Assembly (NCBI GenBank): GCA_026387405.1
Contig: JAPLLV010000056.1
Span: 25,765 to 89,764 of the forward strand
Direction of reading: 5' to 3'
DNA from: Candidatus Omnitrophota bacterium
GTDB lineage: Bacteria; Omnitrophota; Gorgyraeia; Gygaellales; Profunditerraquicolaceae
Length of the DNA stretch: 64,000 nt
Shown: positions 1-60,360 of the stretch, one piece after another
Layout of the letters: each line of letters opens with the position of its first letter
How positions within the stretch are numbered: the stretch's first letter is position 1
The notes under the pieces: generated by a model
The model's input: the letters and a program-made list of their open reading frames with translations, nothing else
Told to the model about the DNA's origin: nothing
Database searches by the model: none
Program-made: the position numbers and the translations under genes

Positions 1-75
1 TGAAATCCTCTCGCCGCCATTTAATTAGTATTCTTCGAGCGAGCGAACGCAGTGAGCGAGTCGAGAAGACAAAAA
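1..75 (+). repeat. Partial, degenerate copy of the family-1 intergenic structured repeat; the core tcttcgagc...gtcgagaag is present, but the arms and termini are not conserved and the copy is cut by the window edge
   Basis: Shares the core motifs tcttcgagc and gtcgagaaga with the copies at 356, 5991, 30669, 48679 and 63131. Confidence 0.35.
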
Positions 76-92
76 TAATGAGAGAAGGCTGA

Positions 93-350
93 AAATGGTT
101 CGTTTACATCATCGAATGTAAAGATAGTACTTATTATACAGGGCTTACCTGGAAGCCAAAACTTAGGTATGAACAGCATGAGTCGGGATTAGGGGGTAAA
201 TATACTGCAGTACATGGCGTAAAGCGAATTGTCTATATCGAAGGACACACAGATCTGGAAACAGCAAGAAGCAGAGAAAGACAAATTAAAGATTGGAACC
301 AGGATAAGAAAAAGAAACTGATAAGCGGTGCTTGGAAAAAAGAGTGGTAA
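93..350 (+). CDS. GIY-YIG nuclease superfamily (UPF0213-like) small protein. The only in-frame ATG (78-80) is followed by an in-frame TGA (90-92), so this is a possible pseudogene, a sequencing error, or a non-ATG start
   Basis: Translation reads KWFVYIIECKDSTYYTGLT...GGKYTAVHGVKRIVYIEGHTDLETARSRERQIKDWNQDKKKKLI, matching the canonical GIY-YIG fold motifs (WYVYIL...YTG.T.DL..R...H..G...KYT...P..LVY.E......A..RE.QIK.W.R.KK..LI). Confidence 0.55.
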   Translation, partial: KWFVYIIECKDSTYYTGLTWKPKLRYEQHESGLGGKYTAVHGVKRIVYIEGHTDLETARSRERQIKDWNQDKKKKLISGAWKKEW

Positions 351-355
351 GCGTT

Positions 356-428
356 GTTCTCGACTCGATAAAAAATCTTCTTTGAATGAAATCGAGAAGA
401 AGATTTTTTACCTCGCTCGAACAATAAC
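356..428 (+). repeat. Family-1 structured intergenic repeat, copy A
   Basis: gttctcgactcg + arm ataaaaaatcttctt + core + complementary arm aagaagattttttac + ctcgctcgaacaataac; the termini are conserved with copies B to E. Confidence 0.8.
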
Positions 429-3840: not shown

Positions 3841-5055
3841 ATGATCCGGGTCCTGGAAATCTCCAATCAAGCAGAATTAAGCGGGATTTTGCGGGAGATC
3901 GGGGTCGATCCTTATGGCATAGGTATCATGCGCCTGAAAGGAATGACGCGCCTTATCCATATCAAAGCCCTATCCAATATAACCGCAAATATCCTTAAGC
4001 AAGAAATGCTCGCCCTCGGCGCAGATGCCGCAATTGCCCGCGGCTCATTGACCGGTAAAACCAAAAGAACCGGCTGTTTGCTGATGGCCAATGATGCGCA
4101 GCTGAACCGGCTAAATGCCAAACTCAAAAATCAACCCTTTGGGCTTGGGGATATCGGGAACCGGATACGAAATGCGCTTCTGAACTACGAAAAAGATAAT
4201 TTTCTAATAGATATCGGAAGGTATAAACTGGACCTGAGCAAGTCTACCCGCGTCATGGGAGTGGTAAATCTTACGCCGGACTCTTTTAGCGGTGACGGCC
4301 TTTATACGCCATATGCCATACGCCATATGCCATACGCCGATAGAATTGTGGAATTTGCGCAAAAATTGGTAGAAGATGGGGCTGATATAATTGACGTGGG
4401 AGGTGAATCTTCCCGCCCCGGAGCCAAACCTATATCAATAAAAGAAGAGTGTTCTCGGGTTATGCCGGCGATCAAGGTTATAGCTAAAAAAATAAAGATC
4501 CCTATCTCCATAGACACCTACAAACCCGAAGTTGCCGGGCGCGCGCTTCTAAATGGCGCGGGTTTAGTAAATGATATCTCGGGTTTAAGAGATCCGGCTA
4601 TGGTTAAAGTGGTTGCCCGCTATAAAGCGGCGGTGGTGATCATGCATATGAAAGGCAAACCCTCTAATATGCAGAAAAAACCTGTTTATGAATCCCTGAT
4701 TTTTGAGATCATGGAATTCCTGGAAAATGCGATAGCCAATGCCGTATCGTGCGGCATAACCAGGGATAAGATCATTGTCGATCCGGGGATCGGCTTTGGG
4801 AAAACCCTAAGAGATAACCTGGAAATATTAAAGAACCTGCAAAGCCTTAAGACCCTGGGCAGGCCCATATTGGTCGGGCCGTCCAGAAAATCCTTTATCG
4901 GTAAAATATTGCGCAGCGGGCCTCAAGATAGGATGCCGGGCACGTTATCTGCCTGCGTATTGGCGGCTAAAAACGGTGCCAGGATCCTGCGGGCGCACGA
5001 TGTAAAAGAAGTAAAGCAGGCATTAAAGATCCTGGACGCGGTATCTGGAGCCTAA
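3841..5055 (+). CDS. folP: Dihydropteroate synthase with a roughly 120-aa N-terminal extension domain
   Basis: Pterin-binding motifs (VMGVVNLTPDSFSGDG, DIIDVGGESSRPGA, SIDTYKPEVA, VNDISG, IVDPGIGFGKT); the ftsH-folP synteny matches E. coli. Confidence 0.9.
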   Translation: MIRVLEISNQAELSGILREIGVDPYGIGIMRLKGMTRLIHIKALSNITANILKQEMLALGADAAIARGSLTGKTKRTGCLLMANDAQLNRLNAKLKNQPFGLGDIGNRIRNALLNYEKDNFLIDIGRYKLDLSKSTRVMGVVNLTPDSFSGDGLYTPYAIRHMPYADRIVEFAQKLVEDGADIIDVGGESSRPGAKPISIKEECSRVMPAIKVIAKKIKIPISIDTYKPEVAGRALLNGAGLVNDISGLRDPAMVKVVARYKAAVVIMHMKGKPSNMQKKPVYESLIFEIMEFLENAIANAVSCGITRDKIIVDPGIGFGKTLRDNLEILKNLQSLKTLGRPILVGPSRKSFIGKILRSGPQDRMPGTLSACVLAAKNGARILRAHDVKEVKQALKILDAVSGA

Positions 5056-5990: not shown

Positions 5991-6065
5991 TTATTCGAGC
6001 GAGGCAAAACTTTTATCTTCTCGACAAGCTCGAAGCATAAAAGTTTTGCCGAGTCGAGAATATTT
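5991..6065 (-). repeat. Family-1 structured intergenic repeat, copy B (reverse orientation)
   Basis: tattcgagcgag + gcaaaacttttat + core cttctcgacaagctcgaagc + ataaaagttttgcc + gagtcgagaatattt; the arms are perfectly complementary. Confidence 0.8.
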
Positions 6066-7225: not shown

Positions 7226-8051
7226 CTCCCACAAGGGAGATTTCGGCCATGTTTTTATAGTGGCGGGTTCGGCCCGTTACTCCGGTGCGGGGGCTCTATG
7301 CTCAGAAGCAGCCATTCGTTCGGGAGCAGGATTAGTAACCTTAGGCATTCCTAAAAGCCTGAATAACGCAATGATAAAGATCAAACCTAAGGAGGTAATG
7401 ACCTTACCGCTGCCGGAAACCAAGCAAGCAACCTTAAGCATAAGGGCGTTTAAAAAGATAAAGGATTTTAGTAACAATATAGATATTCTAGCTATCGGAC
7501 CTGGTCTTTCTCAAAATAACTCAACTCAATCTTTAGTGCGTAAAATTGTGGCGAAAATTGATAAACCGATGGTTATCGATGCCGACGGCCTAAATGCTTT
7601 AGCCGGCCATCTCGGTTTTCTACTAACGACTAACGACCAACGACCAGCGACTATATTAACCCCGCATCCTGGAGAAATGGCGCGGCTATTGGGAACAACT
7701 ATAAAAAAAGTACAGTCGTGTAGAAATGAGACTGCCGTCAGATTTGCCAGAGACTACGATTGCACAGTAGTCTTAAAAGGACACCATACTGTAGTAGCTG
7801 ATTACCGGGGAAATTCATATGTCAACAATACCGGCAACCCAGGGATGGCTACTGCCGGCAGCGGAGACGTATTAACAGGGATGATAGCGGCATTCTTGGC
7901 GCAAGGAATAGAAAGCTATAGCGCGGCAAAATATGCTGTATATCTGCACGGATTAGCTGGCGACTTAGCCGCGGAAGAAAAGACACAAATTTCCTTGATT
8001 GCTTCGGATATTATTGCTAAAATCCCTGAAGCGATAAAGAAAAGCAGTTAG
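7188..8051 (+). CDS. nnr: ADP-dependent NAD(P)H-hydrate dehydratase (YjeF C-terminal / Nnr family). The start is uncertain because it overlaps acpS. Contains an in-frame heptamer-repeat insertion at 7616-7652
   Basis: HKGDFGHVFIVAGSARYSGA, GAGLVT and GSGDVLTG motifs of the carbohydrate-kinase-like YjeF_C domain. Confidence 0.8.
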   Translation: MRLPMRLLRRKNNSHKGDFGHVFIVAGSARYSGAGALCSEAAIRSGAGLVTLGIPKSLNNAMIKIKPKEVMTLPLPETKQATLSIRAFKKIKDFSNNIDILAIGPGLSQNNSTQSLVRKIVAKIDKPMVIDADGLNALAGHLGFLLTTNDQRPATILTPHPGEMARLLGTTIKKVQSCRNETAVRFARDYDCTVVLKGHHTVVADYRGNSYVNNTGNPGMATAGSGDVLTGMIAAFLAQGIESYSAAKYAVYLHGLAGDLAAEEKTQISLIASDIIAKIPEAIKKSS

Positions 8052-8052
8052 C

Positions 8053-8128
8053 GCCGGCGTAGCTCAGTCGGTAGAGCGTCTGTTTTGTAAACAGATGGTC
8101 GGGGGTTCGATTCCTCTCGCCGGCTCCA
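8053..8128 (+). tRNA. tRNA-Thr (anticodon UGU)
   Basis: Hand-folded cloverleaf: acceptor gccggcg/cgccggc, D-arm gctc-agtcggta-gagc, anticodon stem tctgt/acaga with loop tttgtaa, T-loop ttcgatt, 3' CCA encoded. Confidence 0.85.
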
Positions 8129-8138
8129 CTAAAAAAGA

Positions 8139-8804
8139 ATGATTTCAGTAAATCAACAAACGATTAAAAATTTATATTGGGAAAAGGGCTATACTGTGCC
8201 GGATATCGCGAAACGGATTAATATTTCTTCATGGGCACTTTATAATTTTATGGATAGACATAAGATTGGACGGCGCGATCGTTCACAGACAAGCTTTCTT
8301 TTGAGCCGTAATAAACCCCGGTTTATAATAAACAACACTCTTACAGCTTCGCAGGAAAAGCTAAAGATTGCAGGAGTAATGTTATACTGGGCAGAGGGCA
8401 CTTTATTGCATAACACTGTGGATTTTACTAATTCCAATTCAAATATGGTTAGGTTGTTCTTGAAATTCTTAAGGGAAATTTGTGGAATAAGCGAAAAGAG
8501 ATTACGTGTTTATCTTTATTGTTATTCCTATCAGAAGGTAGAAGACCTATTGAACTACTGGCACAAAGTTACGGGAATTCCGTTATCTCAATTTACAAAA
8601 CCATACATAAGAGAAGGAAACATTAATTCTAGCTTAAGAAAATTACCATACGGATTAATTCATGTAAGGTATAATGATAAACAATTGCTTGAGATAATCA
8701 AACAATGGATTGATGAGTATATAGTTTGGACAGGTACCCAAGTGGCCAAAGGGGGCAGACTGTGTAAACGCAGCGTCTTGCCGAAAGGCAGGATGGAAAA
8801 GTAG
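8139..8804 (+). CDS. LAGLIDADG-like homing endonuclease candidate with an N-terminal HTH. It is free-standing and lies immediately upstream of the intron-containing tRNA-Tyr. The 3' end of the ORF reads through the tRNA-Tyr 5' exon
   Basis: IAGVMLYWAEGT resembles the LAGLIDADG/AEG dodecapeptide, followed by a block (NMVRLFLKFLREICGISEKRLRVYLY) typical of single-motif LAGLIDADG enzymes. Location between tRNA genes next to a group I intron. Confidence 0.45.
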   Translation: MISVNQQTIKNLYWEKGYTVPDIAKRINISSWALYNFMDRHKIGRRDRSQTSFLLSRNKPRFIINNTLTASQEKLKIAGVMLYWAEGTLLHNTVDFTNSNSNMVRLFLKFLREICGISEKRLRVYLYCYSYQKVEDLLNYWHKVTGIPLSQFTKPYIREGNINSSLRKLPYGLIHVRYNDKQLLEIIKQWIDEYIVWTGTQVAKGGRLCKRSVLPKGRMEK

Positions 8805-9014
8805 GTGAATTCAGGGGAGCCCCAAGAAACACTTGGGGGAATCCTGAGCCAAGCCCGCCAACTTTTTTCCGGCGGGAAGGTGCAGAGACTAAGCGCCTAC
8901 CACCTAAAACTTTAAAAAGTAACGGTGATGAGATAGTCCAAGCCTTGAGGTAACTCGAGGGCACTTGAAATCTGCTGCACTTGTGCTTCAGAGGTTCGAA
9001 TCCTCTCCTGTCCA
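8728..9014 (+). tRNA. tRNA-Tyr (anticodon GUA) interrupted in the anticodon loop by a 204-nt group I intron. Exon 1 is 8728-8763, exon 2 is 8968-9014
   Basis: Exon 1 ggacagg-ta-ccc-aagtggccaaa-ggg-g-gcaga-ctgt and exon 2 aaa-tctgc-tgcacttgtgcttc (long variable arm)-agagg-ttcgaat-cctct-cctgtcc-a. The spliced product is nearly colinear with E. coli tRNA-Tyr (CCCGAGCGGCCAAAGGGAGCAGACUGUAAAUCUGC). The spurious antisense ORF MDRRGFEPL is the classic tRNA reverse-complement signature. Confidence 0.8.
8764..8967 (+). ncRNA. Group I intron (204 nt) in tRNA-Tyr
   Basis: 5' exon ends with U (cugu|), paired to the internal guide gcag just inside the intron (P1 with a U.G wobble). The intron ends with G (cacttg|). 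The R-like element gtgcagagactaag (8881-8894) and S-like element gagatagtcc (8930-8939) form P7 (gacta/tagtc). Further hairpins at ccccaag-aaaca-cttgggg and cccgcc...ggcggg. Confidence 0.75.
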
Positions 9015-9037
9015 TTGACTTTATCTACAGAACCAAT

Positions 9038-9658
9038 ATGGAAAATATAATAAAAACAGACCGAGATGCTTCTCTTTTTATCGATTTAGCAGATAAAGAT
9101 TATTTAGCAGTCAGGTTACTTTTTGGTTGTGGTAACTGTTTTTATAATTTAGCCGCCTACCATTCTCAGCAATGCTTGGAAAAATATCTAAAAGCATTTC
9201 TTGTTCAGAAAACCAGCACTTATCTCAAAACACATAATTTGAAAGAATTAAGGGAGATGGCCGAAGCTCATAATAGCTATTTCTCTAAAGACGAGGTAAA
9301 AAAAGCTTTGGCTGAGTTTGATAAATATGACCAAGTTACCCGTTATAGCGCAGAGGCCACTTACGACCCAAATTCACAGAAAAATAAGTGCTTTGAGATT
9401 AAAGGGGTGTGGAGCTTCGGTCTTGGGTTTGGCAATATTAGAACTTTAGATAAGCTTGTTTACGAAATAAGGAGTTTAATGGACTTCGATAAATTAAAGG
9501 GAAGAAACAATCTAAAAGACATATTTAAGGAAGAGAAAAACAATTCATTTATCATGTGTTGGAAATTACCGATTCCGATAAAAAGAGTATTAACTATAGA
9601 AAATGATTATTGGGGGGGCAGGTTAGATATAAAAGTTGAGTTTGTAGAAGTCAGTTAA
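9038..9658 (+). CDS. HEPN domain protein (putative RNase / toxin-like) with an Rx5H motif
   Basis: AAYHSQQCLEKYLKAFL helix and LREMAEAHNSY (R-x5-H) characteristic of HEPN. The first 19 codons of the tracked ORF overlap the tRNA-Tyr 3' exon, so the start at 9038 is preferred. Confidence 0.55.
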   Translation: MENIIKTDRDASLFIDLADKDYLAVRLLFGCGNCFYNLAAYHSQQCLEKYLKAFLVQKTSTYLKTHNLKELREMAEAHNSYFSKDEVKKALAEFDKYDQVTRYSAEATYDPNSQKNKCFEIKGVWSFGLGFGNIRTLDKLVYEIRSLMDFDKLKGRNNLKDIFKEEKNNSFIMCWKLPIPIKRVLTIENDYWGGRLDIKVEFVEVS

Positions 9659-14709: not shown

Positions 14710-15884
14710 AAAATCACAAGTATAACGGGATTATAGAAAAATACCGCGGGTATCTTCCTGTTTCCGGTAAGACGCCGGTAATCACTCTGCAAGAAGGAAA
14801 TACTCCTCTAATATACGCCCCTTTCCTGAGTAGATTAGTCAGTGAAAGTTGCGGGGTTTACCCCCACACCAATTGGAAAAAAAAGGATATCTTTCAACCA
14901 ATTGGTGTGGGGGTATATCTAAAATATGAAGGTCTTAATCCTACCGGTTCTTTCAAAGACAGGGGCATGACTATGGCTGTTTCCAAGGCCTGCGAGCAAG
15001 GCTCAAGGGCAGTGATCTGCGCCTCAACCGGAAATACATCGGCCTCGGCTGCCGCTTATTCTGCCCGCGCCGGAATTAGATGCATTGTGCTCATTCCTAA
15101 GGGAGCGATCGCCCTGGGAAAGTTGAGCCAGGCAATAATCCACGGAGCAACGGTCCTGGCTGTTAAAGGAAATTTTGATGAAGCACTGGAACTGGTAAAA
15201 GAGGTCGCGGCAAAATATCCCATAACCCTGGTCAACTCGCTTAACCCTTTCCGCATTGAAGGACAGAAAACCGCTAGTTTCGAGATCTGCGATTATTTGG
15301 GCAGGGCTCCGGATTTCCAGGTCATGCCTGTGGGCAATGCCGGAAATATCACCGCTTATTGGAAAGGATATAAAGAATACAAAGTTCATAAGAAAATAAG
15401 GCATTTGCCTGTGATGCTCGGTTTTCAGGCCGAAGGCGCAGCGCCTATAGTGAAGGGACATCCCATAAAAAATCCGCAAACTTTAGCCACGGCCATACGT
15501 ATCGGCAATCCGGCAAGCTGGACTCAGGCAGAAGCAGCTCGAGACGAATCCAGCGGGCTTATCGATGCGGTCTCGGATAAAGAAATAATCGCTGCCTACA
15601 AACTATTAGCCCAAAAGGAAGGCGTCTTTGTGGAACCTGCTTCCGCGGCTTCTATCGCCGGCCTCTTAAAATTAGCCAGAAATAAATATTTTAAACCAAG
15701 TACCAACGACCAACCCCGCCTGCCACTTGGTACGCGGGGCGGGCAGGGACCAACGACCAAAATCGTCTGCATCCTGACCGGACATGGCTTGAAAGACCCG
15801 GACAGGGCCATAAAATCAGTTAAAGAACCAAAGATAGTAAAGCCGGAATTGAGAGCTATATTAAGGGGAATAGGCTATTTTTAG
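14706..15884 (+). CDS. thrC: Threonine synthase, with a roughly 22-aa repeat-derived insertion near the C-terminus
   Basis: PLP-lysine motif FKDRGMT and GNTSASAAAY. The insertion KPSTNDQPRLPLGTRGGQGPTTK is encoded by caacgac-type repeats at 15696-15762. Confidence 0.9.
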   Translation: MKNHKYNGIIEKYRGYLPVSGKTPVITLQEGNTPLIYAPFLSRLVSESCGVYPHTNWKKKDIFQPIGVGVYLKYEGLNPTGSFKDRGMTMAVSKACEQGSRAVICASTGNTSASAAAYSARAGIRCIVLIPKGAIALGKLSQAIIHGATVLAVKGNFDEALELVKEVAAKYPITLVNSLNPFRIEGQKTASFEICDYLGRAPDFQVMPVGNAGNITAYWKGYKEYKVHKKIRHLPVMLGFQAEGAAPIVKGHPIKNPQTLATAIRIGNPASWTQAEAARDESSGLIDAVSDKEIIAAYKLLAQKEGVFVEPASAASIAGLLKLARNKYFKPSTNDQPRLPLGTRGGQGPTTKIVCILTGHGLKDPDRAIKSVKEPKIVKPELRAILRGIGYF

Positions 15885-15954
15885 CGTATAGCGGATAGCG
15901 TTTAGTGAGCAGAAAAATTCTCGCTCTACGCTCTACGCTCTACGCTCTACGCTA
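15885..15954. repeat. Family-2 simple repeat: agcgtatagcggatagcg followed by four tandem copies of the heptamer GCTCTAC (15923-15950)
   Basis: Direct reading. Shares agcgtatagcggatag with the repeat at 60286-60360. Confidence 0.8.
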
Positions 15955-16584
15955 ATGTTAAAAAATAAGCGAATTCTAATTACCGCGGGCCCCACCTGGG
16001 TTCCCATAGACAGCGTAAGGGTAATCAGTAATATCGCGACAGGGGAAACCGGGAGGCTTTTAGCCGAAAGATTACAAAAGGCAGGCGCAAAGGTCACTCT
16101 GATTATAGGACATACGGGCTGTTCTTCTTCAAACCGCAATATCCGCATAATTAATTTTAAATTTTTTGATGACCTGCGGAAAATCCTGAAAAAAGAACTG
16201 CGCTTAACTAAATACGATTTTATTATCCATTCGGCAGCCGTTTCAGATTTTAAACCGCGAAGGACCATTAAAAACAAGATTGATTCGGCAAGACCTCGCA
16301 CTTTGAAGCTTATAGGCTTACCGAAAATCATAAAGGATATACGCTCTTTAAATCCCGAGGGGAAACTAGTGATGTTCAAGTTGGAATCGGGGGTAAATGA
16401 CACGACTCTGATTAAACGCGCCAGAAAATCCCTGCTGGCTTACCAGGCGGATTTTGTTGTAGCAAACCGCGTCTTTAGAGCGTACAAGGCATTTGTCCTG
16501 AATCATTCAAAGGTTTACTCAAAAGCCGGATCAAAAAAAGAATTGGTTAGAAAACTCGTTGAGGTATTAAAGCGGGCGAGGTGA
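15955..16584 (+). CDS. coaB: Phosphopantothenoylcysteine synthetase domain protein (CoaB-like, DFP C-terminal half)
   Basis: ILITAGPTWVPIDSVRVISNIATGETG matches the CoaB signature. Confidence 0.75.
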   Translation: MLKNKRILITAGPTWVPIDSVRVISNIATGETGRLLAERLQKAGAKVTLIIGHTGCSSSNRNIRIINFKFFDDLRKILKKELRLTKYDFIIHSAAVSDFKPRRTIKNKIDSARPRTLKLIGLPKIIKDIRSLNPEGKLVMFKLESGVNDTTLIKRARKSLLAYQADFVVANRVFRAYKAFVLNHSKVYSKAGSKKELVRKLVEVLKRAR

Positions 16585-21283: not shown

Positions 21284-21360
21284 TGTCATTGCGAGGAGCG
21301 AAAGCGACGAAGCAATCTAAAGGCATGATTGCTTCGCCCCTTCGGGGCTCGCAATGACAG
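21284..21360 (+). repeat. Family-4 structured repeat with GAAA and UUCG tetraloop hairpins, copy 1
   Basis: Outer stem tgtcattgcgag/ctcgcaatgaca; inner hairpins gaagcaatc...gattgcttc and gcccc-ttcg-gggc; gc-gaaa-gc. Confidence 0.75.
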
Positions 21361-23119: not shown

Positions 23120-25933
23120 ATGAGCAATGAAATCCCCAAACAATATAACCCGCGAGAATGTGAAGATAAGTGGTATAAGTTCTGGGAAGAGAATAATTAT
23201 TTCTCCGCCAGGGCCAATCCCGCAAAGAAACCTTTCTCTATAGTCATTCCGCCGCCTAATGTGACAGGGATCCTGCACATGGGCCATGCCTTAAATAACA
23301 CTATCCAAGACATCCTCATCCGCTACCATCGCATGCAAGGTGAAGAGTCTCTCTGGATGCCGGGGACTGACCATGCCGGGATCGCCACCCAAAACGTGGT
23401 AGAAAAAGCCCTTGCCAAGGAAAACATCAAGCGCCAGGATTTAGGGAGGGAAAAATTCATCGAGAAAGTCTGGCTATGGAAGGAACAATACGGCTCCGCC
23501 ATCATCAGGCAGCTAAAGAAATTAGGCGCATCCTGCGATTGGTCAAGGATACGCTTTACCATGGATGAGGAATATTCCAAGGCGATAGTTGAAGTCTTTG
23601 TGCGCCTATATGAGAAGGGCCTGATCTATCAGGGAAACTACATTATCAACTGGTGCCCGCGCTGCCAGACCGCGCTTTCCGATGAAGAAGCGCCGCATAA
23701 AGAGCTGCAGGGAAATTTATACTATTTAAGATATCCTATTGTCGTTAGTCGTAAGTCGTTAGTCGTTAGTAAGGCTGGAGCAAAAGGAAGCGGAAAAAAG
23801 ACGGATGACGAATACATTGTTGTCGCAACTACCCGGCCGGAGACGATGCTCGGCGACACGGCGGTGGCGGTTAACCCCAAAGATAAACGCTATAAGCATC
23901 TTATCGGTGAGAGCATCATCCTGCCTTTAGTCAATCGCGAAATAAAAATTATCTCTGACAACAGCGTGGATGTGAAATTCGGCACAGGCGCGGTCAAAGT
24001 CACGCCCGCGCATGACCCTAACGATTATGCCTTAGGCAAAAAGCACAAGCTGGAATTTATAAACGTGATGCGTGCCGACGGACGCATGAATGAAAATTCG
24101 GGCGATTACAAAGATATGGATCGTTTCGAGGCCAGGGAGGTCATCCTGGAAGACTTGAAGGAAAAGGGATTCCTGGAGAAGGTCGAACCTCACCAGTTGT
24201 CCGCTGGACACTGCTACCGTTGCCACACCATCATCGAACCCTACCTATCCAAACAGTGGTTTGTAAAAATGAAGCCGCTGGCAAAAGAAGCGATACGGGT
24301 AGTCAAAAAGGGTAAGATCAAATTTCATCCGGAGCGCTGGACCAAGGTATACCTTAACTGGATGGAGAATATCCAGGATTGGTGCATCTCCAGACAGATC
24401 TGGTGGGGACATCGCTTGCCTGTTTACTACTGTAAAAATTGCCTGACTAACGACCAACGACTAACGACTAACGACAAGGGAGGCGTTATTGTCTCTCGCA
24501 CTAAGCCGGAAAAATGCCCGGAATGCGGTTCAACCGATATCTATCAAGACGACGATGTGCTGGACACCTGGTTTTCCAGCTGGCTCTGGCCCTTTGCTAC
24601 CTTTGGCTGGCCATTTGGCTTATCGCATATGGCAAATGGCATATCGCAAGAAAGCCATAAGCGATTAGCGATAAGCGATAAGCAAAAGGATTTAGATTAT
24701 TTCTACCCCACCTCTGTCCTCGTTACTGCCCCGGAAATCATCTTTTTCTGGGTAGCGCGCATGATCATGGCCGGCCTGGAGTTCATGCAAGACATTCCTT
24801 TTAGAGATGTTTATATCCACGGGACAGTGCGCGACACCGAAGGCAAAAAGATGTCTAAATCCCTGGGTAATATTATAGACCCGCTGGATATCATAAAAGA
24901 GTTCGGAACCGATGCCTTACGCTTCAGCCTGATATCCATTACCGCCCAGGGCCAAGACGTATTCTTGTCCAAAGAAAGATTTGAACAGGGAAGGAATTTC
25001 GCCAACAAGATCTGGAACGCCTCAAGGTTCATCCTGATGAACCTCCAACCGGAGCAAACCAAAGCCGATCTCTGTGTATTCTTCAAAAAAGAAAATTTAA
25101 GCCTGGAAAACCGTTGGATCTTAAGCCGGTTCTATTCGGTATTAAAAGAGTTAAACTCTCACCTTGACTCCTTAAAATTCAATGAAGCCGCGAATCTTTT
25201 GTATGGCTTCTTCTGGCACGAGTTCTGCGATTGGTATCTGGAAATAATCAAGGCTGATATAAAGAACCCGCAGAACCAGATAGTCATGTATAAGGTGTTA
25301 GAAAAATTTTTAAGGATACTGCACCCGTTAATGCCTTTTTTGACCGAGGAGATCTGGCAGAAATTTAACAACCAACCAACGACCAAGGACCAACGACTAA
25401 CGACCAGTATTATGATCCAGCCCTGGCCGCATGTGCAAGAGCAGATGATCGACAAGAAATATGAAGAATTGATGCAGTCGGTCTTTGATGTCATTGTAAC
25501 CATCCGGAATATGCGCTCGGAATTGGAAATACCCCTCCAGGACACCATATCCTCGACGATTTGTTCTCCCCAGAAGAAGGAACGAGAACTTTTAGCATCC
25601 TGCGCTCCGATCATAAAGAACCTGACCAAAACAGGAGAAGTGGATATCAAAGAGACATGCACGCGCGGCCCGGGACAATTCGTAATGGTCTTAAAAGACA
25701 TGCATATCGTCATCCCGCTCTCAGGGCTAATAGACATTGCTGCCCACCGCAAAAAGACCGAAGAGAAGATAGCCAAAGCTGAGGCAGAGATCAAGCGCAA
25801 AAAGGAACTGTTGGAGAATGCGAATTTCAGCAAAAATGCACCGGAAGAAATAGTAGAGAAGGAAAAGGCGAGGTTAAGCGAATTAAACGAGCTGGTAAAA
25901 AAACTAAAGGCGGTGAAAGATGCACTCCAATAA
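23120..25933 (+). CDS. valS: Valine--tRNA ligase, with four in-frame repeat-derived insertions
   Basis: HMGHAL (HIGH) and KMSKS motifs, C-terminal coiled coil. Insertions at 23741-23774, 24444-24474, 24611-24682 and 25371-25408 fall in loops that are variable in E. coli ValRS. Confidence 0.95.
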   Translation: MSNEIPKQYNPRECEDKWYKFWEENNYFSARANPAKKPFSIVIPPPNVTGILHMGHALNNTIQDILIRYHRMQGEESLWMPGTDHAGIATQNVVEKALAKENIKRQDLGREKFIEKVWLWKEQYGSAIIRQLKKLGASCDWSRIRFTMDEEYSKAIVEVFVRLYEKGLIYQGNYIINWCPRCQTALSDEEAPHKELQGNLYYLRYPIVVSRKSLVVSKAGAKGSGKKTDDEYIVVATTRPETMLGDTAVAVNPKDKRYKHLIGESIILPLVNREIKIISDNSVDVKFGTGAVKVTPAHDPNDYALGKKHKLEFINVMRADGRMNENSGDYKDMDRFEAREVILEDLKEKGFLEKVEPHQLSAGHCYRCHTIIEPYLSKQWFVKMKPLAKEAIRVVKKGKIKFHPERWTKVYLNWMENIQDWCISRQIWWGHRLPVYYCKNCLTNDQRLTTNDKGGVIVSRTKPEKCPECGSTDIYQDDDVLDTWFSSWLWPFATFGWPFGLSHMANGISQESHKRLAISDKQKDLDYFYPTSVLVTAPEIIFFWVARMIMAGLEFMQDIPFRDVYIHGTVRDTEGKKMSKSLGNIIDPLDIIKEFGTDALRFSLISITAQGQDVFLSKERFEQGRNFANKIWNASRFILMNLQPEQTKADLCVFFKKENLSLENRWILSRFYSVLKELNSHLDSLKFNEAANLLYGFFWHEFCDWYLEIIKADIKNPQNQIVMYKVLEKFLRILHPLMPFLTEEIWQKFNNQPTTKDQRLTTSIMIQPWPHVQEQMIDKKYEELMQSVFDVIVTIRNMRSELEIPLQDTISSTICSPQKKERELLASCAPIIKNLTKTGEVDIKETCTRGPGQFVMVLKDMHIVIPLSGLIDIAAHRKKTEEKIAKAEAEIKRKKELLENANFSKNAPEEIVEKEKARLSELNELVKKLKAVKDALQ

Positions 25934-30252: not shown

Positions 30253-30340
30253 CACCCCGCGCTAAGAAGTCATCTGGCCCTAGGCACCCGGCGCTTATTT
30301 GAATTGCGCCGGTGTTCCCTCGTGGGGAATTTGCGCGGGT
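30253..30340 (+). promoter_or_regulatory. groES leader hairpin module: outer stem caccccgcgc/gcgcgggtg enclosing inner hairpin cacccggcgc-ttatttgaatt-gcgccggtg. Same motif family as 34243-34274 and 42153-42183
   Basis: Direct reading. 32 nt (gcacccggcgcttatttgaattgcgccggtgt) are identical to the guaB-like leader. Confidence 0.6.
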
Positions 30341-30371
30341 GTTGTCCTGGTGGACAAGGAGGTGTAAAAAA

Positions 30372-30668: not shown

Positions 30669-30742
30669 GTTCTCGACTCGCAGCAAATTTATTCTTCGAG
30701 CTTGTCGAGAAGATAAATTTGCTGGCTCGCTCGAACAATATT
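30669..30742 (+). repeat. Family-1 structured intergenic repeat, copy C (inside the groES-groEL spacer)
   Basis: gttctcgactcg + cagcaaatttat + tcttcgagcttgtcgagaag + ataaatttgctg + gctcgctcgaacaatatt. Confidence 0.8.
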
Positions 30743-30770: not shown

Positions 30771-32429
<1,659 letters not shown>

Positions 32430-32460
32430 TCGTTAGTCGTTGGTCGTTGGTTGATAGTCA
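32430..32460. repeat. Heptamer tandem repeat (TAGTCGT/TGGTCGT x4), i.e. the reverse complement of the ACGACTA/CAACGAC family
   Basis: tagtcgttagtcgttggtcgttggttgatagtc directly after the groEL stop. Confidence 0.75.
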
Positions 32461-32497
32461 AAAAAAGGGGGGCACAGGAAAGTGCTCCCCTTTTTTT
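32461..32497 (+). terminator. Rho-independent (bidirectional-type) terminator after groEL
   Basis: A-run, stem ggggggcac/gtgctcccc, loop aggaaa, then ttttttt. Confidence 0.8.
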
Positions 32498-34080: not shown

Positions 34081-34242
34081 TCAAACCTTCCTATTTTTAA
34101 GCCTTCCCGCTCTAAAATAAGCATTGACAAAAAAGCATTATTAGTGTAAAATTCAATATCTATTTTGTCGATATCAGACCTACCGGAAAATTCTGTATTT
34201 ATTTGATAAATAAGAGGTTGCGGACACTTGGGCCAGATAGGG

Positions 34243-34274
34243 CACCCGGCGCTTATTTGAATTGCGCCGGTGTC
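34243..34274 (+). promoter_or_regulatory. guaB-like leader hairpin cacccggcgc-ttatttgaatt-gcgccggtg (shared leader motif)
   Basis: Identical to the inner hairpin of the groES leader. Lies downstream of a TTGACA promoter at 34125 and is followed by a hairpin partly covering the SD. Confidence 0.6.
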
Positions 34275-34326
34275 CCCCCCGTGGGGAATTGAGCCAGTGT
34301 TAACTTACTGTTAAGGAGTAGATCAC

Positions 34327-35487
34327 ATGGCAGAGTGGATAGGTATAGGAAAACGCGGCAGAAGGTGCTACGGGTTTGACGAAGTAGCGCTGGTGCCGGG
34401 AGCGCAGACGGTTAACCCGGCTGAGGTTGATACCAGCTTTAAGATCAATGGGAAGAGATTCGAGATCCCTATTCTGGCAGCAGCCATGGACGGGGTTGTA
34501 GATGTAAAATTTGCCGTGGAGATGTCCAAGCTAGGGGGAATCGCGGTCTTAAACCTCGACGGCGTGCAGACCCGCTATGAAAATCCCGATGCCGTGCTGG
34601 AAAAAATCTCCAAGGCCAACCCTCAAGAAGCCACTACGCTGATACAGTCAATTTACACCACTCCCATAAAGGAAAAACTGGTGGGAAAGAGGGTAAAAGA
34701 GATAAAAGCCAAAAAAGGCACTGCCGTAGTCAGTTGTATCCCGGCCAACGCGGAAAAATTCGCTAAGCTCGCGGTAAACGCGGGAGCTGACATATTTGTT
34801 ATCCAATCCACGGTCACCACTACCAAACACATATCCCATCAATATAAAAGCCTGGATTTATTTAAGTTCTGTAAAAAAACACCTATTCCTGTCATTCTCG
34901 GCAACTGCGTAACATATGAAACTACCCTTGAATTGATGGATACAGGTTGCGCCGGACTACTCATTGGTATCGGACCGGGGGCTGCCTGCACTACCCGCGG
35001 AGTCTTAGGAATAGGCGTGCCGCAGGTCACTGCAACTGTAGACGCGGCCGCAGCCCGAGATTTTCATTTTAAACGCAGTGGAAAATACGTGCCTATTATT
35101 ACTGACGGCGGAATGAACCGAGGCGGAGACATCTGCAAGGCCTTTGCTTCAGGAAGTGACGCGGTAATGATCGGCTCCAGCTTTGCCCGGGCAAAAGAGG
35201 CTCCGGGAAGAGGATATCACTGGGGCATGGCTACCTCCCACATGAACCTTCCCCGCGGCACCCGTATTTACGTAGGCTCAACCGGCTCCTTAAAAGAGAT
35301 CTTATTCGGGCCGGCAAAAGTAGATGACGGTTCGCAAAACCTTATGGGCGCTTTAAAGACATCCATGGGGTCCTTAGGGGCGCAAAATATCAAAGAGATG
35401 CAAAACGTCGAGATCATCATCGCGCCTTCAATCCAGACCGAAGGAAAAATCTTCCAGGTAGGACAAAGGGTAGGAATGGGAAAATAG
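34327..35487 (+). CDS. guaB: IMP dehydrogenase / GMP reductase family protein lacking the CBS subdomain
   Basis: GIGPGAACTTRGVLGIGVPQVTA catalytic-loop signature; 386 aa; immediately upstream of guaA. Confidence 0.75.
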   Translation: MAEWIGIGKRGRRCYGFDEVALVPGAQTVNPAEVDTSFKINGKRFEIPILAAAMDGVVDVKFAVEMSKLGGIAVLNLDGVQTRYENPDAVLEKISKANPQEATTLIQSIYTTPIKEKLVGKRVKEIKAKKGTAVVSCIPANAEKFAKLAVNAGADIFVIQSTVTTTKHISHQYKSLDLFKFCKKTPIPVILGNCVTYETTLELMDTGCAGLLIGIGPGAACTTRGVLGIGVPQVTATVDAAAARDFHFKRSGKYVPIITDGGMNRGGDICKAFASGSDAVMIGSSFARAKEAPGRGYHWGMATSHMNLPRGTRIYVGSTGSLKEILFGPAKVDDGSQNLMGALKTSMGSLGAQNIKEMQNVEIIIAPSIQTEGKIFQVGQRVGMGK

Positions 35488-35528
35488 CACGTAGCAAATG
35501 GCTAATGGCAAATAGAAGGAAGGTATAA

Positions 35529-37070
35529 ATGACGAGGCATACGATTTTAATCTTAGATTTCGGTTCGCAATACACGCAGTTGATCGCCAGGCGCGTGCGG
35601 GAGAACAAAGTTTTCTCGCGCATTATCCCGTACAACACCCCGGCAAAAGAGATCGCCGCCATGGGTCCCAAAGGCCTGATCTTATCCGGAGGCCCGGCGT
35701 CTGCCATCACTAAAAAGAGCCCTTACCCGGATAAGGGAATATTCAAACTTGGGATCCCCATCCTGGGTATATGCTATGGCATGCAGGTGATCAGCGAAAT
35801 GTGCGGCGGTAAAGTCAGGCATACCAAGGAGCGCGAATTCGGCAAGACCGAATTATTCATAGATGATAACCGCGACCTCTTCAGCCATATGCCGGGAAAC
35901 CTGACCTGCTGGGCCAGCCACGGGGACTACGTAAATAAACTTCCTCCGGGATTCCATATTTCGGCGCACACCTTGAACGCTCCTATCGCCGCGATGTCTA
36001 ACCGCAATAAAAAGCTCTACGGCGTGCAATTCCATCCCGAGGTTACCCATACGGACAAAGGGAACCAGGTACTGGCAAACTTTTTATTTAAGATCTGCGG
36101 CGCATTAAGCCGCTGGACCATGCAATCATTCATCAAGGAAAGCATAGAAAATATCAAAAAAACCCTGGGTAAAAACAAGGTAGTGCTGGGCCTAAGCGGC
36201 GGGGTAGACTCCTCGGTAGCCGCGCTCTTAATCCACAAGGCCATAGGGAAGAATCTGCGCTGCATCTTTATAGATAACGGGGTGATGAGAAAAGACGAGC
36301 CCCAACAGGTAAAAAGCGTCTTTCGCGGGATGTATCACTTGAACCTGGACTATGTGGACCGCAGTAAACGCTTCCTGGAACGCCTAAGAGGCATTACTGA
36401 CCCCGAGCAAAAACGGAAGATCATCGGGTACGAGTTTGTCAAGGTATTCGAAGAAGAAGCGCACAAACTAAGAGGGGTAAAATACCTCGGCCAGGGGACG
36501 CTTTATCCGGACGTAATCGAATCCTCTTCGCCAACCGGCGCGCCTTCCTGCCGCATTAAAAGCCATCACAACGTCGGCGGCCTGCCGGAACATATGAAAT
36601 TGAAGCTGATCGAGCCGCTGCGCGACCTATTTAAAGATGAGGTGCGGCAGATCGGCAAAGAACTCGGCCTCCCCAGCGAGATAATCCTGCGCCAGCCTTT
36701 TCCGGGTCCGGGCCTGGCGATCAGGATCATCGGAGAGGTAACCAGAGAACGGCTGGAACTTCTGCGCGAAGTCGACCGCAGGGTCATCGAAGAGATCAGG
36801 GTTGCCGGACTCTATGAGCAGATCTGGCAATCCTTTGCCGTCTTGTTACCCATAAAAAGTGTGGGGGTTATGGGAGATGAACGCACTTACGAGAATACGA
36901 TAGCATTGCGCTGCGTCACCAGCCTTGACGGGATGACTGCGGACTGGGCAAAGATACCTTACGAGATCCTGGAAAAAATATCCAATCGTATTATCAACGA
37001 AGTAAAAGGAGTAAACCGCGTAGTCTACGATATCAGCTCCAAGCCTCCCGCGACTATTGAGTGGGAATAA
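35529..37070 (+). CDS. guaA: GMP synthase (glutamine-hydrolysing)
   Basis: Class-I GATase domain, then the ATP-PPase SGGVDSS motif; 513 aa. Confidence 0.95.
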
Positions 37071-37231
37071 ATTAGCAAATAGCACGTGGCGAATAGCAAA
37101 TAGCCATAACACAATCTTTCTGATAAATTTATAAATTTTTTATTTTTGCTTTCCGTGCTAGCGTCCTAAGCTTTACGCTATTAGCCATTTGCCATACGCT
37201 ATTAGCCATTTGCTATTAGCCATAAGCCATC
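37071..37231. repeat. Spacer built from inverted arrays of agcaaatagc / gctattagccatttgc motifs flanking an AT-rich centre. A related motif sits at 35488-35525
   Basis: attagcaaatagcacgtggcgaatagcaaatagccat on the left and gctattagccatttgccatacgctattagccatttgctattagccataagccat on the right. Confidence 0.7.
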
Positions 37232-43790: not shown

Positions 43791-43877
43791 CGAAAAATGG
43801 GATTCCTCGCTGCGCTCGGAACAGGCTGCGCAATCTAAAATTAAGATTGCTTCGCCCCTTCGGAGCTCGCAATGACG
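43733..43877 (+). repeat. Family-4 structured repeat, copy 2, carrying a roughly 75-nt internal insertion. It spans the hisS 3' end and the hisS-aspS spacer
   Basis: gtcattgcgaggagc ... gcgcaatctaaaattaagattgcttcgccccttcggagctcgcaatgac. Shares the outer stem, inner stem and UUCG hairpin with copy 1 at 21284. Confidence 0.75.
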
Positions 43878-43885
43878 ACTTTACT

Positions 43886-48269: not shown

Positions 48270-48773
48270 ATGGAAATAGCCATAAAAAACCTGCAGTCCA
48301 AAATTCCTATCAATCCGAAGAGGATAAAAAGAATAATCCTTGATACGCTTTCATCCGAAGGCGTCAAAAAACCAGCGAGCATCAGTGTCTGTTTTGTAAA
48401 CGACAAGAAAATAAAGGAATTGAATCTGCGTTTCCTTAAAAGATCGGGACCAACCGACGTAATATCCTTCGACCTATCCGCCGGTACAAAAGAGATTGTC
48501 GCGGAGATCGCCGTCTCTACGGACACGGCTATACGCCAGTCAAAGATCTATCACACCACTTATACCTATGAAACTCTCCTTTACGTAATACACGGGTTGC
48601 TGCATATACTTGGCTATGACGACAGAAGCGCCCGTCAAAGAAAACTCATGCAGGAAAAAACAGAATCTATACTTGATAGTTCCCGACTCGGAAAAACTTT
48701 TATTCTTCGAGCAAGGTCCCTGCCTGCCGGCAGGCAGGGAGAAGATAAAAGTTTTGCCTCGCTCGAACAATAA
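48270..48773 (+). CDS. ybeY: Endoribonuclease YbeY, C-terminally extended by read-through into repeat copy D
   Basis: HGLLHILGYDD zinc-binding motif. The last roughly 20 codons lie inside the family-1 repeat. Confidence 0.85.
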   Translation: MEIAIKNLQSKIPINPKRIKRIILDTLSSEGVKKPASISVCFVNDKKIKELNLRFLKRSGPTDVISFDLSAGTKEIVAEIAVSTDTAIRQSKIYHTTYTYETLLYVIHGLLHILGYDDRSARQRKLMQEKTESILDSSRLGKTFILRARSLPAGRQGEDKSFASLEQ

Positions 48774-48774
48774 C
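48679..48774 (+). repeat. Family-1 structured intergenic repeat, copy D, whose central loop carries the palindrome ccctgcctgccggcaggcaggga
   Basis: gttcccgactcg + gaaaaacttttat + tcttcgagc-aaggtccctgcctgccggcaggcagggagaag + ataaaagttttgcc + tcgctcgaacaataac. Confidence 0.8.
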
Positions 48775-56783: not shown

Positions 56784-57617
56784 ATGAAAAGCGCCAAAAT
56801 AACGCTAAAAGATATCCTGGACCTTAAAAACAAACGCAAGATCACCATGCTTACCGCCTATGATTTCCCGACGGCTTCGCTGGTGGATAAGGCGGGAATT
56901 GACATGATCCTTGTCGGGGATTCACTTGCAAATGTGGTCTTAGGCCTGGACTCTACCACCAAGGTGGGGATGACCGAAATGCTGCATCACGCCAAGGCAG
57001 TCACCCGCGCCGTGGAACATGCCCTGGTAGTCGGAGATATGCCCTATGATTCCTATCAAGTAAATCCCGAAGAATGCGTAAAGAACGCCGGGCGTTTTAT
57101 CGCGGAGGCGAATTGCGATGCCGTAAAATTAGAGTGGTTTGACCGTTGCCTGGAGGTAACCGAAAAGATCATCTCTGCCGGAATACCGGTAATGGGACAT
57201 ATAGGGCTCACCCCCCAAACCGCGGATAAAATAGGCGGTTTTAAGGTGCAGGGCAAGGATGCCGAGACTGCCCAGAAACTCATAGACCAGGCGGTCAACC
57301 TCCAGAAACTGGGTTGTTTCTCGATAGTGCTGGAATGCGTGCCGGACAAGATCGCGGCAGTCATAACCAGGAAACTAAAGATCCCCACTATCGGCATCGG
57401 CGCCGGGCTCGATTGTGACGGACAGGTTTTAGTCATCCATGACCTCTTGGGGTTATTCGAGCGTTTTAAGCCGAAATTCGTCAAGCAATACATAAACCTG
57501 TCGCCCCTGATATTTAAGGCGATCGAAGAATACAAAAATGAGGTAACCGCGCTTAAGTTCCCCGCGCCGGAACATACCTTCGGCATAAAAGAAGAAGAAT
57601 TGAAAAAACTTAAGTGA
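56784..57617 (+). CDS. panB: 3-methyl-2-oxobutanoate hydroxymethyltransferase
   Basis: LTAYDFPTA...VGDSL...GDMP motifs of PanB. Confidence 0.9.
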   Translation: MKSAKITLKDILDLKNKRKITMLTAYDFPTASLVDKAGIDMILVGDSLANVVLGLDSTTKVGMTEMLHHAKAVTRAVEHALVVGDMPYDSYQVNPEECVKNAGRFIAEANCDAVKLEWFDRCLEVTEKIISAGIPVMGHIGLTPQTADKIGGFKVQGKDAETAQKLIDQAVNLQKLGCFSIVLECVPDKIAAVITRKLKIPTIGIGAGLDCDGQVLVIHDLLGLFERFKPKFVKQYINLSPLIFKAIEEYKNEVTALKFPAPEHTFGIKEEELKKLK

Positions 57618-58920: not shown

Positions 58921-60285
58921 ATGGCTGAAAATTTGATGGATAAGATAGTTTCACTTTCTAAGCGCCGGGGCTTTATCTTCCAGTCTTCGGAGGTATACGG
59001 AGGCCTTAGCAATACCTGGGACTACGGCCCTTTTGGCGTGGAGCTCAAGAACAACCTAAAAACAGCCTGGTGGAAGGCCAATGTCTACCAGCGCGACGAT
59101 ATCCTGGGCATGGACGCGGCCATACTCATGCACCCTGATGTCTGGCGGGCATCCGGTCACGTGGATAACTTTTTTGATCTAAAAAGCGACTGCAAAACCT
59201 GCAAAAAACGCTTTAAGACCGCGGACTTAAAAAACGCCGATAAATGTCCCGAATGCGGCGGAGAACTCACTGAAAGCCGCCCTTTTAACCTGATGTTCAA
59301 AACCTACCAGGGGCCGGTGGAAGACGCAGGGAATATCGTTTATTTAAGGCCGGAGACTGCCCAGGGGATGTTCGTGAACTTCATCAATATCCTGGACGCG
59401 CGCCACCCCAAACTTCCCTTTGGCCTGGCGCAGATCGGCAAGGCCTTCAGGAACGAGATCACACCGGGTAATTTCACCTTCCGCACCCGTGAGTTCGAGC
59501 AGATGGAGATCGAATATTTTGTCCGGCCGCAAGAGGGCGACAAAAAATTAGAGGAGTGGATAGAAACCCACTTTAATTGGTATGTCAATTTGGGTATAAA
59601 GAAGGAGAACTTAAGGAAACGCCCGCACGGGAAAGAGGAACTGGCGCATTACGCCAAGGCCTGCACGGATATCGAATACAACTTTCCCTTCGGGTGGAGC
59701 GAATTAGAAGGTATTGCCAACCGGACTGATTTTGATCTAAAGCAGCACGCCAGGCAAAGCGGCAAGGACTTTCAGTATTTCGACGACGCGGCAAAACAAA
59801 GGTTTTATCCGTACATTATTGAACCATCAGGGGGGGTAGACAGGAGCGTTCTGGCATTTCTGGTAGATGCCTACCACGAGGAAAAAGTTCCCCCCCGCAC
59901 CAATTTTGAAAAAAACGAAGCTATTCTACCAATTGGTGCGGGGGTAAAGAATGACACGCGCGTGGTCTTAAAGCTGCACAGGGACCTGGCGCCTACAAAA
60001 GTGGCGGTGCTGCCGCTTTTAAGGAACCGGCCGGAGATCGTGGAGCTGGCGCAAAAAATAGCCCGGGAGCTTAAGAAAAATATGGTGGCCGTTTATGACG
60101 ACACCGGCTCAATAGGAAAACTCTACCGCAGACAGGATGAGGTAGGCACGCTCTACTGCGTCACGGTAGATGTACAGTCAATGGAGGACAAGCAGGTCAC
60201 GGTGCGCGAGCGTGACAGCATGCAACAAGAACGCATCAGCGTCGATAAACTAAAAGAATATCTTTTGCAAAAATTAAACAACTAG
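58921..60285 (+). CDS. glyQS: Glycine--tRNA ligase, alpha2 (archaeal/eukaryotic-like) type
   Basis: Class II motifs, zinc-ribbon-like CxxC...CPEC insertion, C-terminal anticodon-binding domain; 454 aa. Confidence 0.9.
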   Translation: MAENLMDKIVSLSKRRGFIFQSSEVYGGLSNTWDYGPFGVELKNNLKTAWWKANVYQRDDILGMDAAILMHPDVWRASGHVDNFFDLKSDCKTCKKRFKTADLKNADKCPECGGELTESRPFNLMFKTYQGPVEDAGNIVYLRPETAQGMFVNFINILDARHPKLPFGLAQIGKAFRNEITPGNFTFRTREFEQMEIEYFVRPQEGDKKLEEWIETHFNWYVNLGIKKENLRKRPHGKEELAHYAKACTDIEYNFPFGWSELEGIANRTDFDLKQHARQSGKDFQYFDDAAKQRFYPYIIEPSGGVDRSVLAFLVDAYHEEKVPPRTNFEKNEAILPIGAGVKNDTRVVLKLHRDLAPTKVAVLPLLRNRPEIVELAQKIARELKKNMVAVYDDTGSIGKLYRRQDEVGTLYCVTVDVQSMEDKQVTVRERDSMQQERISVDKLKEYLLQKLNN

Positions 60286-60360
60286 TCTTAGCGTATAGCG
60301 TAGAGCGTATAGCGGATAGACCTATACGCTAAACGCTATCCGCTAAACGCTAAAAGAAAG
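60286..60360. repeat. Family-2 simple repeat / imperfect palindrome built from TAGCGTATAGCG and CGCTAAACGCTA units
   Basis: ttagcgtatagcgtagagcgtatagcggatag-acc-tatacgctaaacgctatccgctaaacgctaa. Shares agcgtatagcggatag with 15885. Confidence 0.75.

Follow-up and report, generated by a model that had tools for sequence, protein, structure and literature searches.

To our knowledge, the Ssn enzymes are the only site-specific nucleases that are restricted to single-stranded DNA. SsnA from Neisseria meningitidis is a 94-amino acid protein with a single GIY-YIG domain (CDD cd10448), and its gene is flanked by hairpin repeats, NTS (CGTCATTCCCGCGMAVGCGGGAATCYRG), of which there are hundreds (Chenal et al., Nat Commun 2025; PMC11893778). 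SsnA binds NTS only as single-stranded DNA, cuts one strand a few nucleotides upstream, is inactive on the reverse strand, on double-stranded DNA and on RNA, and modulates natural transformation (PMC11893778). The paper describes thousands of SsnA homologs, defined by tblastn E < 1e-10 to the N. meningitidis protein; most are flanked by Ssn-related motifs (SRM), and 42% are flanked on both sides. The authors note that NTS-ssnA-NTS is laid out like an insertion sequence and parallels the REP/RAYT systems, and they expect many enzyme/motif pairs of differing specificity (PMC11893778).

Family-1, the repeat considered here, is found in a 64-kb stretch of DNA (the window) from a Candidatus Omnitrophota bacterium. 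Rather than an unknown kind of repeat, it is most likely a divergent Ssn/SRM variant with its own nuclease clade and its own repeat architecture: dispersed hairpins that quite probably pair with a small single-domain GIY-YIG nuclease, in a divergent version of the Ssn/SRM (NTS) system. The first-pass annotation had not recognized the family, although it most likely belongs to a kind published in 2025; literature searches with the repeat sequence strings, and for GIY-YIG together with MITE, REP or transposon, gave no match. The likeness to Ssn/SRM has several parts: the nuclease is a small single-domain GIY-YIG protein (about 90-95 amino acids), hairpin repeats lie on either side of its gene, these repeats are also dispersed in many, mostly intergenic, copies (six in the 64 kb), and each is a stem with a conserved non-palindromic flank and so has a direction. 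The features of the window are as follows.

About 27-68, minus strand: short unit of the left-end type, with its tail away from the GIY-YIG gene, ending 9 nt before the ATG.
78-350, plus strand: single-domain GIY-YIG nuclease gene, Ssn-like, about 90 codons (Pfam PF01541, E = 1.7e-15).
356-428, plus strand: composite long-form unit of the right-end type, beginning 5 nt past the nuclease stop codon; outer ends GTTCTCGACTCG ... CTCGCTCGAACAATAAC, arms ATAAAAAATCTTCTT / AAGAAGATTTTTTAC, inner inverted unit partly decayed.
5991-6065, minus strand: composite long-form unit, arms GCAAAACTTTTAT / ATAAAAGTTTTGC, between a cdaA-like DAC gene (with a 62-aa ORF) and pdxJ.
30669-30742, plus strand: composite long-form unit, arms CAGCAAATTTAT / ATAAATTTGCTG, in the groES-groEL spacer.
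48679-48774, plus strand: composite long-form unit, beginning at the end of the YbeY domain, with recO next.
48717-48740, no strand assigned: perfect 24-nt palindrome TCCCTGCCTGCCGGCAGGCAGGGA, the hairpin of the nested inverted inner unit.
63131-63224, minus strand: composite long-form unit, arms GCGGCAAATTTAC / ATAAAATTGCCGC, 5 nt past the ppdK stop codon.
63163-63186, no strand assigned: identical second copy of the 24-nt palindrome TCCCTGCCTGCCGGCAGGCAGGGA, at the same place in the nested inner unit.

The six copies, five long and one short, all lie where the first-pass annotation had put them, and they occur in both orientations as it had said, three in sense on the plus strand and three on the minus strand. 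Its gene contexts were also correct: Pfam confirms the groES/groEL spacer, the YbeY domain, PPDK and the DAC domain, while the 62-aa ORF between the DAC-domain gene and pdxJ has a putative YbbR/CdaR-like N-terminus. At ybeY, to whose 3' end a copy had been described as fused, the domain ends at residue 136 and the ORF continues for 31 codons (SRLGKTFILRARSLPAGRQGEDKSFASLEQ) through the repeat (48679-48773) to a TAA in the repeat tail, so that the original 3' end and stop codon of ybeY have been replaced by the repeat. The conserved ends of the family-1 copies are GTTCTCGACTCG ... CTCGCTCGAACAATA. In the window, the 3' terminus CTCGCTCGAACAAT has seven matches with up to two mismatches against 0.44 expected, a number reached in none of 100 shuffles, and these are the six copy termini and the nested inner unit at 48702-48715; the 5' decamer TCTCGACTCG alone is weakly enriched (6 matches against 2.5 expected). 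The copy at 63131-63224 is 84% complementary to 48679-48772. The short copy at about 27-68 reads on the minus strand as TTCTCGACTCG, then 13 nt, then CTCGCTCGAAGAAT, and on the plus strand as AGTATTCTTCGAGCGAG-cgaacgcagtgag-CGAGTCGAGAAG.

The basic unit, clearest in the short forms of other genomes, has a closing stem N-TTC...GAA-N', an internal loop, a variable hairpin and the 3' tail AATATT. The internal loop has 5-8 nt per side, lies between the 4-5-bp closing stem and the variable hairpin, and is conserved, asymmetric and non-complementary, with TCGACTCG on the 5' side opposite CTCGC on the 3' side (loop bases GAGCGAG / CGAGTCGA). The long copies of the window are composites, in which a second unit of opposite orientation is nested at the apex of the outer hairpin. 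What had been described as a core, TCTTCGAGC...GTCGAGAAG (tcttcgagc...gtcgagaag), is this nested inverted second unit, and the central palindrome, which is present in two copies as the identical 24-nt sequence described, is the hairpin of that inner unit. A similar hairpin, CCTGTCTGCCGACAGGCAGG, serves an ordinary unit in related loci of other genomes (L129 and L130).

Conserved termini and copy-specific complementary arms are present in the five long copies, as first reported, and the proposal that selection acts on pairing and not on sequence withstood the covariation check. The 34 long-form copies compared, from the window and many genomes, have 32 distinct arm pairs. Watson-Crick pairs within the copy account for 374 of 410 arm positions (91%), and the pairing fraction per arm is 0.88 within the same copy compared with 0.52 (sd 0.14) when arms are swapped across copies. 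These values come from anchored parsing of the copies in Python, which was used in place of a MAFFT/RNAalifold alignment of 32 long copies that misaligned the variable arms and under-reported covariation. The closing pair of the unit is Watson-Crick in 325 of 369 non-redundant units (88%; G-C 139, C-G 113, T-A 50 and A-T 23), and that of the inner unit covaries as well (C-G 29, G-C 3, T-A 1). The stems are thus kept by compensatory change, and the loop and tail are conserved in sequence. The five long copies fold better than shuffled sequences both as RNA (z = -3.2 to -5.6) and as DNA (z = -3.1 to -6.5), and one of them has an alternative fold in which the outer 3' end pairs with the inner unit; the short copy at 27-68 folds no better than shuffles (z about -0.4). 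Mismatches in the arms (six G:T, eleven A:C) do not single out a functional strand.

The degenerate copy reported at 1-75 is real; overlooked was that it forms, together with 356-428, the inverted ends of a GIY-YIG cassette. Units 27-68 and 356-428 bracket the gene at 78-350 in inverted orientation with their tails outward, giving a cassette of about 0.4 kb (27-428). PF01541 covers 74 of the 85-90 residues of the nuclease, which has no second domain, and the nuclease alignment shows no variation at the Tyr, Tyr, Gly, Arg, His and Glu positions. Inverted units directly flank the nuclease gene in the window and in six loci of other genomes (L001, L072, L078, L050, L100 and L004); the same layout is found beside GIY-YIG genes of Omnitrophota, Pirellulales, Bacteroidales, an Ignavibacteria MAG and a MAG labelled Actinomycetota, and Pfam finds the GIY-YIG domain in the window locus and in loci of five other phyla.

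The association was also approached from the protein side. Relatives were fetched from metagenomes with a three-protein alignment, which gave more than 505 stretches, of which 80 were kept and 75 were non-redundant. With a strict motif definition applied to these 75 non-redundant metagenome loci of the window nuclease clade, an antisense unit lies upstream of the nuclease in 45 of 74 loci (61%; median gap 10 nt), a sense unit lies downstream of its stop codon in 50 of 71 (70%; median gap 8.5 nt), and units lie on both sides in 41 of 70 (59%), compared with a background density of 0.2 units per kb in the rest of these loci. The remaining loci mostly have variant unit classes, for example CCTTCGAC...GCTCAGGCAAT. 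The parts of the system, their layout, the covariation and the association between gene and repeat are directly observed.

The copy of the nuclease gene in the window is probably a pseudogene. The protein shares 82% identity with an ortholog of 90 aa that is intact in an Omnitrophota MAG (L001, 6021-6290 on the minus strand of contig JAUSEX010000045.1). At the fifth codon, 90-92, the window has an in-frame TGA, whereas L001 and L072 encode Trp there (TGG), so the gene is probably inactive unless UGA is read as Trp. TGA is a normal stop in other long ORFs of the window; the codon at 90-92 could be a nonsense mutation, a sequencing error or a site of low-level UGA-to-Trp read-through. Since the nuclease in the window is probably dead, the five long copies would depend on a nuclease copy elsewhere in the genome or be relics.

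A scan of species-representative genomes for TTCTCGACTCG-N40-70-CTCGCTCGAA gave at least 108 loci. Among the matches listed are Omnitrophota, Planctomycetota, Bacteroidota, Patescibacteria, Actinomycetota (including cultured Bifidobacterium), Acidobacteriota and others, at least seven phyla, often with several units per genome; a minority of the matches, in high-GC genomes, resemble chance hits in coding DNA. By their tails, the units fall into two classes, and no locus carries both. The AATA(TT) tail occurs in Omnitrophota, candidate phyla and some Planctomycetota, and the ATGACA tail of the sister class in Bacteroidales, Pirellulales, Terriglobales and Bifidobacterium. The two tail types go with different nuclease clades: of the units that flank the window nuclease clade, 61 of 79 have the AATA(TT) tail and none the ATGAC tail. 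The sister class has the same loop motifs, and where a gene adjoins (L078, L050), a GIY-YIG nuclease is flanked.

Other arrangements were seen among these loci and in the window. In Candidatus Doudnabacteria, the repeat is expanded head-to-tail, with tandem 27-nt half-units (CTTCTCGACTCGGCTCGAAATCTGCGA repeated) and one complete unit at the end (L048, 7300-7410; L054, 1708-2031). A gene-less inverted doublet at 21284-21360 of the window represents a second repeat class with a canonical tail, TGTCATTGCGAG-gagcgaaagcgac-GAAGCAATCT, aaaggcat, GATTGCTTCG-ccccttcgggg-CTCGCAATGACA, and folds strongly as DNA (-26 kcal/mol, z -7.1). A partly decayed copy of this class lies at 43800-43878, and in L100 a canonical Ssn-like gene has units of this class at its sides; the 64-kb window itself contains no cognate gene. 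The small GIY-YIG gene at L045 (7208-8000) is a different one and matches T5orf172 as well. It has the complete tRNA gene on one side and a partial duplicate of the tRNA 5' end on the other, which suggests that it was inserted at the tRNA gene and uses no hairpin units.

Compared with Ssn/SRM in detail, the sister class has an outline (GATT..C ... G..AATGACA) that is that of the other strand of NTS (GATTCCCGC...GCGGGAATGACG). Family-1 itself differs in several respects. The tail is AATATT where that of Ssn/SRM is GTCATT, and whereas NTS is one continuous stem, the unit is interrupted by an internal loop that sets its variable hairpin apart. Composites with a nested inverted unit are absent from the passages of the Ssn paper considered here (PMC11893778). 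The tails point outward from the gene, whereas those of the nearest repeats face ssnA in the N. gonorrhoeae control locus, which has NTS copies on both sides of the gene. The published SRM pattern, HGTCWYN(0-2)YYVSBRHN(0-5)WNVSBRGN(0-2)RNCYNB, finds five NTS copies in this control locus and has no hits in the window, on its copies or otherwise, and none in L078, L100 or L050. A regular-expression match at 57318-57335 of the window lies inside a gene and was rejected as chance.

The nuclease differs as well. The window clade is 32-33% identical to the SsnA of N. gonorrhoeae (41-46 bits), compared with 44-50% for the proteins of L078, L100 and Planktothrix (L078, 50%), and Neisseria records are absent among the protein-search matches at E <= 1e-6. 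A neighbor-joining tree places the window clade beside the canonical Ssn group on a long branch. Judging from the bit scores, by our own estimate, the window nuclease would miss the tblastn threshold used to define Ssn homologs. UPF0213/YhbQ proteins are of equal size and single-domain, and they are the best match among solved structures and plasmid-borne genes: the window clade is 39-43% identical to BH0048 (PDB 1zg2; 58-66 bits, E = 5e-14), the best solved-structure match, and also matches the UPF0213-type EF2693 (PDB 1ywl; E = 1e-9) and E. coli YhbQ (31-32% identity). The low score to SsnA and the higher score to UPF0213 mean that the clade may lie outside Ssn as defined by cd10448. Overall identity to UPF0213/YhbQ is nevertheless only 31-43%, and E. 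coli yhbQ is situated between yhbP and yhbS with no space for flanking hairpin units. NCBIfam has no model for these nucleases.

The link to the gene, the covariation, the even orientation of units relative to co-directional flanking genes (46 the same, 49 opposite) and the Ssn-like architecture lead to the reading of family-1 as a nuclease-paired DNA element. By analogy with SsnA, the nuclease is expected to share its biochemistry, including cleavage, choice of strand and a single-stranded substrate. When DNA becomes single-stranded, as in replication, transformation or repair, one strand of the unit would fold; the nuclease would read the stem together with the bases of the loop and tail, and would nick the single strand a few nucleotides outside the tail, ignoring double-stranded DNA and RNA. 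From the geometry of a composite copy, each DNA strand would show one module in the cleavable orientation. Gene-less units are scattered in intergenic DNA on either strand. The whole may be a selfish cassette or a modulator of single-stranded DNA restriction or recombination that serves the host.

The selfish alternative, in the form of a mini-transposon or homing cassette, is possible but doubtful. It involves the same parts as the nuclease-paired element and gives them the role of a parasite: the 0.4-kb unit'-GIY-YIG-unit would be an autonomous mobile element, spreading by cuts at the outward tails followed by repair or by integration of single-stranded DNA, and the solo and composite units would be its non-autonomous derivatives, comparable to MITEs or REPINs. 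The layout is indeed like that of an insertion sequence, with inverted ends and outward tails, and gene-less unit'-unit dimers occur in L001, L111 and L113, beside the sister-class doublet at 21284-21360. The wide occurrence, in more than 505 related metagenome loci for the nuclease and at least seven phyla for the units, also speaks for it, and the Ssn authors raise the same possibility (PMC11893778). Several observations weigh on the other side. The five window copies have no target-site duplications, and neither empty-site nor target-duplication evidence for mobility was seen. We know of no strand-transfer activity for a GIY-YIG domain alone. L115 and L132/L133 share both flanks, with nucleases 64-76% identical to the query, which resembles vertical inheritance as in RAYTs. 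The only clear case of recent multiplication, in the Omnitrophota MAG JAZDOX01, is that of a larger repeat bounded by terminal inverted repeats that carries the unit.

In JAZDOX01 (L037, L042, L091, L106 and L108), the composite unit lies inside a repeat with the inverted ends GTGGAGTTTCCCCAAAATTT ... AAATTTTGGGRAATGTCCAC, present on at least five contigs with 1-3 differences. Such near identity on so many contigs indicates that the unit hitch-hikes in another small mobile element.

A more specific proposal is that a previously undescribed clade of single-domain GIY-YIG nucleases, no farther from UPF0213/YhbQ than from SsnA, has its own class of structured recognition elements in single-stranded DNA (closing stem, conserved internal loop, variable hairpin and AATATT tail), that with them it forms an autonomous mobile cassette of about 0.4 kb, and that the nested composites are an adaptation putting a cleavable module on both strands. 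Taken as a whole, this proposal is unlikely.

The structured-RNA alternative left in the first-pass annotation fares much worse and is very improbable. It would have the repeat act in its own transcripts as a hairpin for processing, stabilization or attenuation, at groES-groEL and elsewhere, as REP sometimes does. Copies directly past stop codons or in operon spacers, strong folding as RNA and covarying stems would all suit this role. However, the loop and tail are asymmetric, so an RNA function should show an orientation bias, and none is seen, either among flanking genes (46:49) or in the window (3:3), where all genes are on the plus strand. Also in favor of DNA over RNA, 303 of 369 units (82%) lie outside long ORFs; the exact core was used for these 369-unit counts, since a loose motif allowing one mismatch per half had many chance matches in coding sequence. 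No copy in the window or in eight related loci matches Rfam at the gathering score or at E <= 1, which together with the random orientation makes a structured RNA unlikely. The units, including the groES-groEL copy, have no terminator-like T run, and an intrinsic terminator was rejected for this lack. The element is also tied to a nuclease whose characterized relatives act on single-stranded DNA and bind no RNA (PMC11893778). Hairpins this strong could still have a secondary effect on mRNA, for example at groES-groEL.

The likeness to REP, BIME and MITE elements drawn in the first-pass annotation is apt for REP/BIME as far as architecture goes. As in REP/BIME/REPIN-RAYT systems, a small nuclease-type gene sits between inverted copies of its own dispersed palindromes, inverted doublets make longer hairpins, and diverged genomes have the gene at a shared locus. 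RAYTs are HUH Y1 transposases, however, whereas the bracketed gene is GIY-YIG in all loci examined; the REPs of one genome have a conserved stem sequence, whereas the arms here differ from copy to copy; and REPs have a GTAG-type head. Where MITEs moved by DDE enzymes have terminal inverted repeats of at least 10 nt and target-site duplications, the ends of family-1 pair over 4-5 bp only and no duplication was found at the five copies. Classical REP/BIME moved by a RAYT, or a MITE of a DDE insertion sequence, can hardly be credited: the elements are indeed small, palindromic, intergenic, multi-copy and at times in inverted pairs, but the bracketed gene is neither HUH nor DDE, terminal pairing is short, and target-site duplications and a GTAG head are lacking in the window copies.

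IS200/IS605 elements and PATEs offer a further parallel in their subterminal imperfect hairpins, which are read on one strand of single-stranded DNA and cut beside the hairpin. They differ in their HUH chemistry, in left and right cleavage sites guided by base triplets, in ends without inverted symmetry and in greater length. Integron attC sites were also considered and rejected: the ends here are GTT...AAC and not AAC...GTT, the copies lie between housekeeping genes, and no integrase is nearby.

As a nuclease-paired DNA element, family-1 supplies an enzyme/motif pair that the Ssn search pattern and homology threshold would probably miss. It has a different recognition architecture, with an internal loop, another tail and nested two-strand composites, and its nuclease clade bridges SsnA and UPF0213/YhbQ. 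It offers an explanation for common orphan intergenic palindromes in uncultivated phyla, Bacteroidales and Bifidobacterium; such palindromes create spurious ORFs and can alter gene ends, as at ybeY. If the cassette is mobile, it bears on the rise of REP-like repeats with a non-HUH enzyme and, at about 0.4 kb, would be among the smallest autonomous mobile elements known. The proposal, if true, would add a new hairpin-directed GIY-YIG mode of DNA mobility or of single-stranded DNA restriction that is widespread in Omnitrophota, Planctomycetota and candidate-phyla bacteria.

The window contains other repeats and structured elements. A 60-nt palindromic repeat, GTTTACCCCCACACCAATTGG ... CCAATTGGTGTGGGGGTA, is present in two copies that are 77% identical (14856-14915 and 59887-59946) and is unrelated to family-1. 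A 61-nt repeat with 84% identity between copies (30283-30343 and 34241-34301) has the inverted repeat GGCACC(C)GGCGC-N11-GCGCCGGTG, lies upstream of groES and of the ORF at 34327, and is possibly an operator common to both, such as one for heat-shock control. Tandem arrays of 7 nt occur on both strands (GTCGTTA/TAACGAC, TATGCCA-like and CTCTACG/CGTAGAG-like) at 4303-4347, 7616-7659, 15879-15955, 23726-23775, 24441-24478, 25364-25409, 32415-32464, 35468-35509, 37063-37230 and 60288-60355; in L119 and L121, heptad arrays (AACCAGT, AACTGGT) adjoin GIY-YIG cassettes. The group I intron at 8694-8960 (Rfam RF00028, 82 bits, E 2.5e-19) is complete and is not in a tRNA gene, and a tRNA-Thr gene lies upstream of its locus (8053-8128). 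A 221-aa ORF for which Pfam gives no match (8139-8804) extends into the intron with its 3' end, and an ORF with a HEPN domain (8981-9658) follows.
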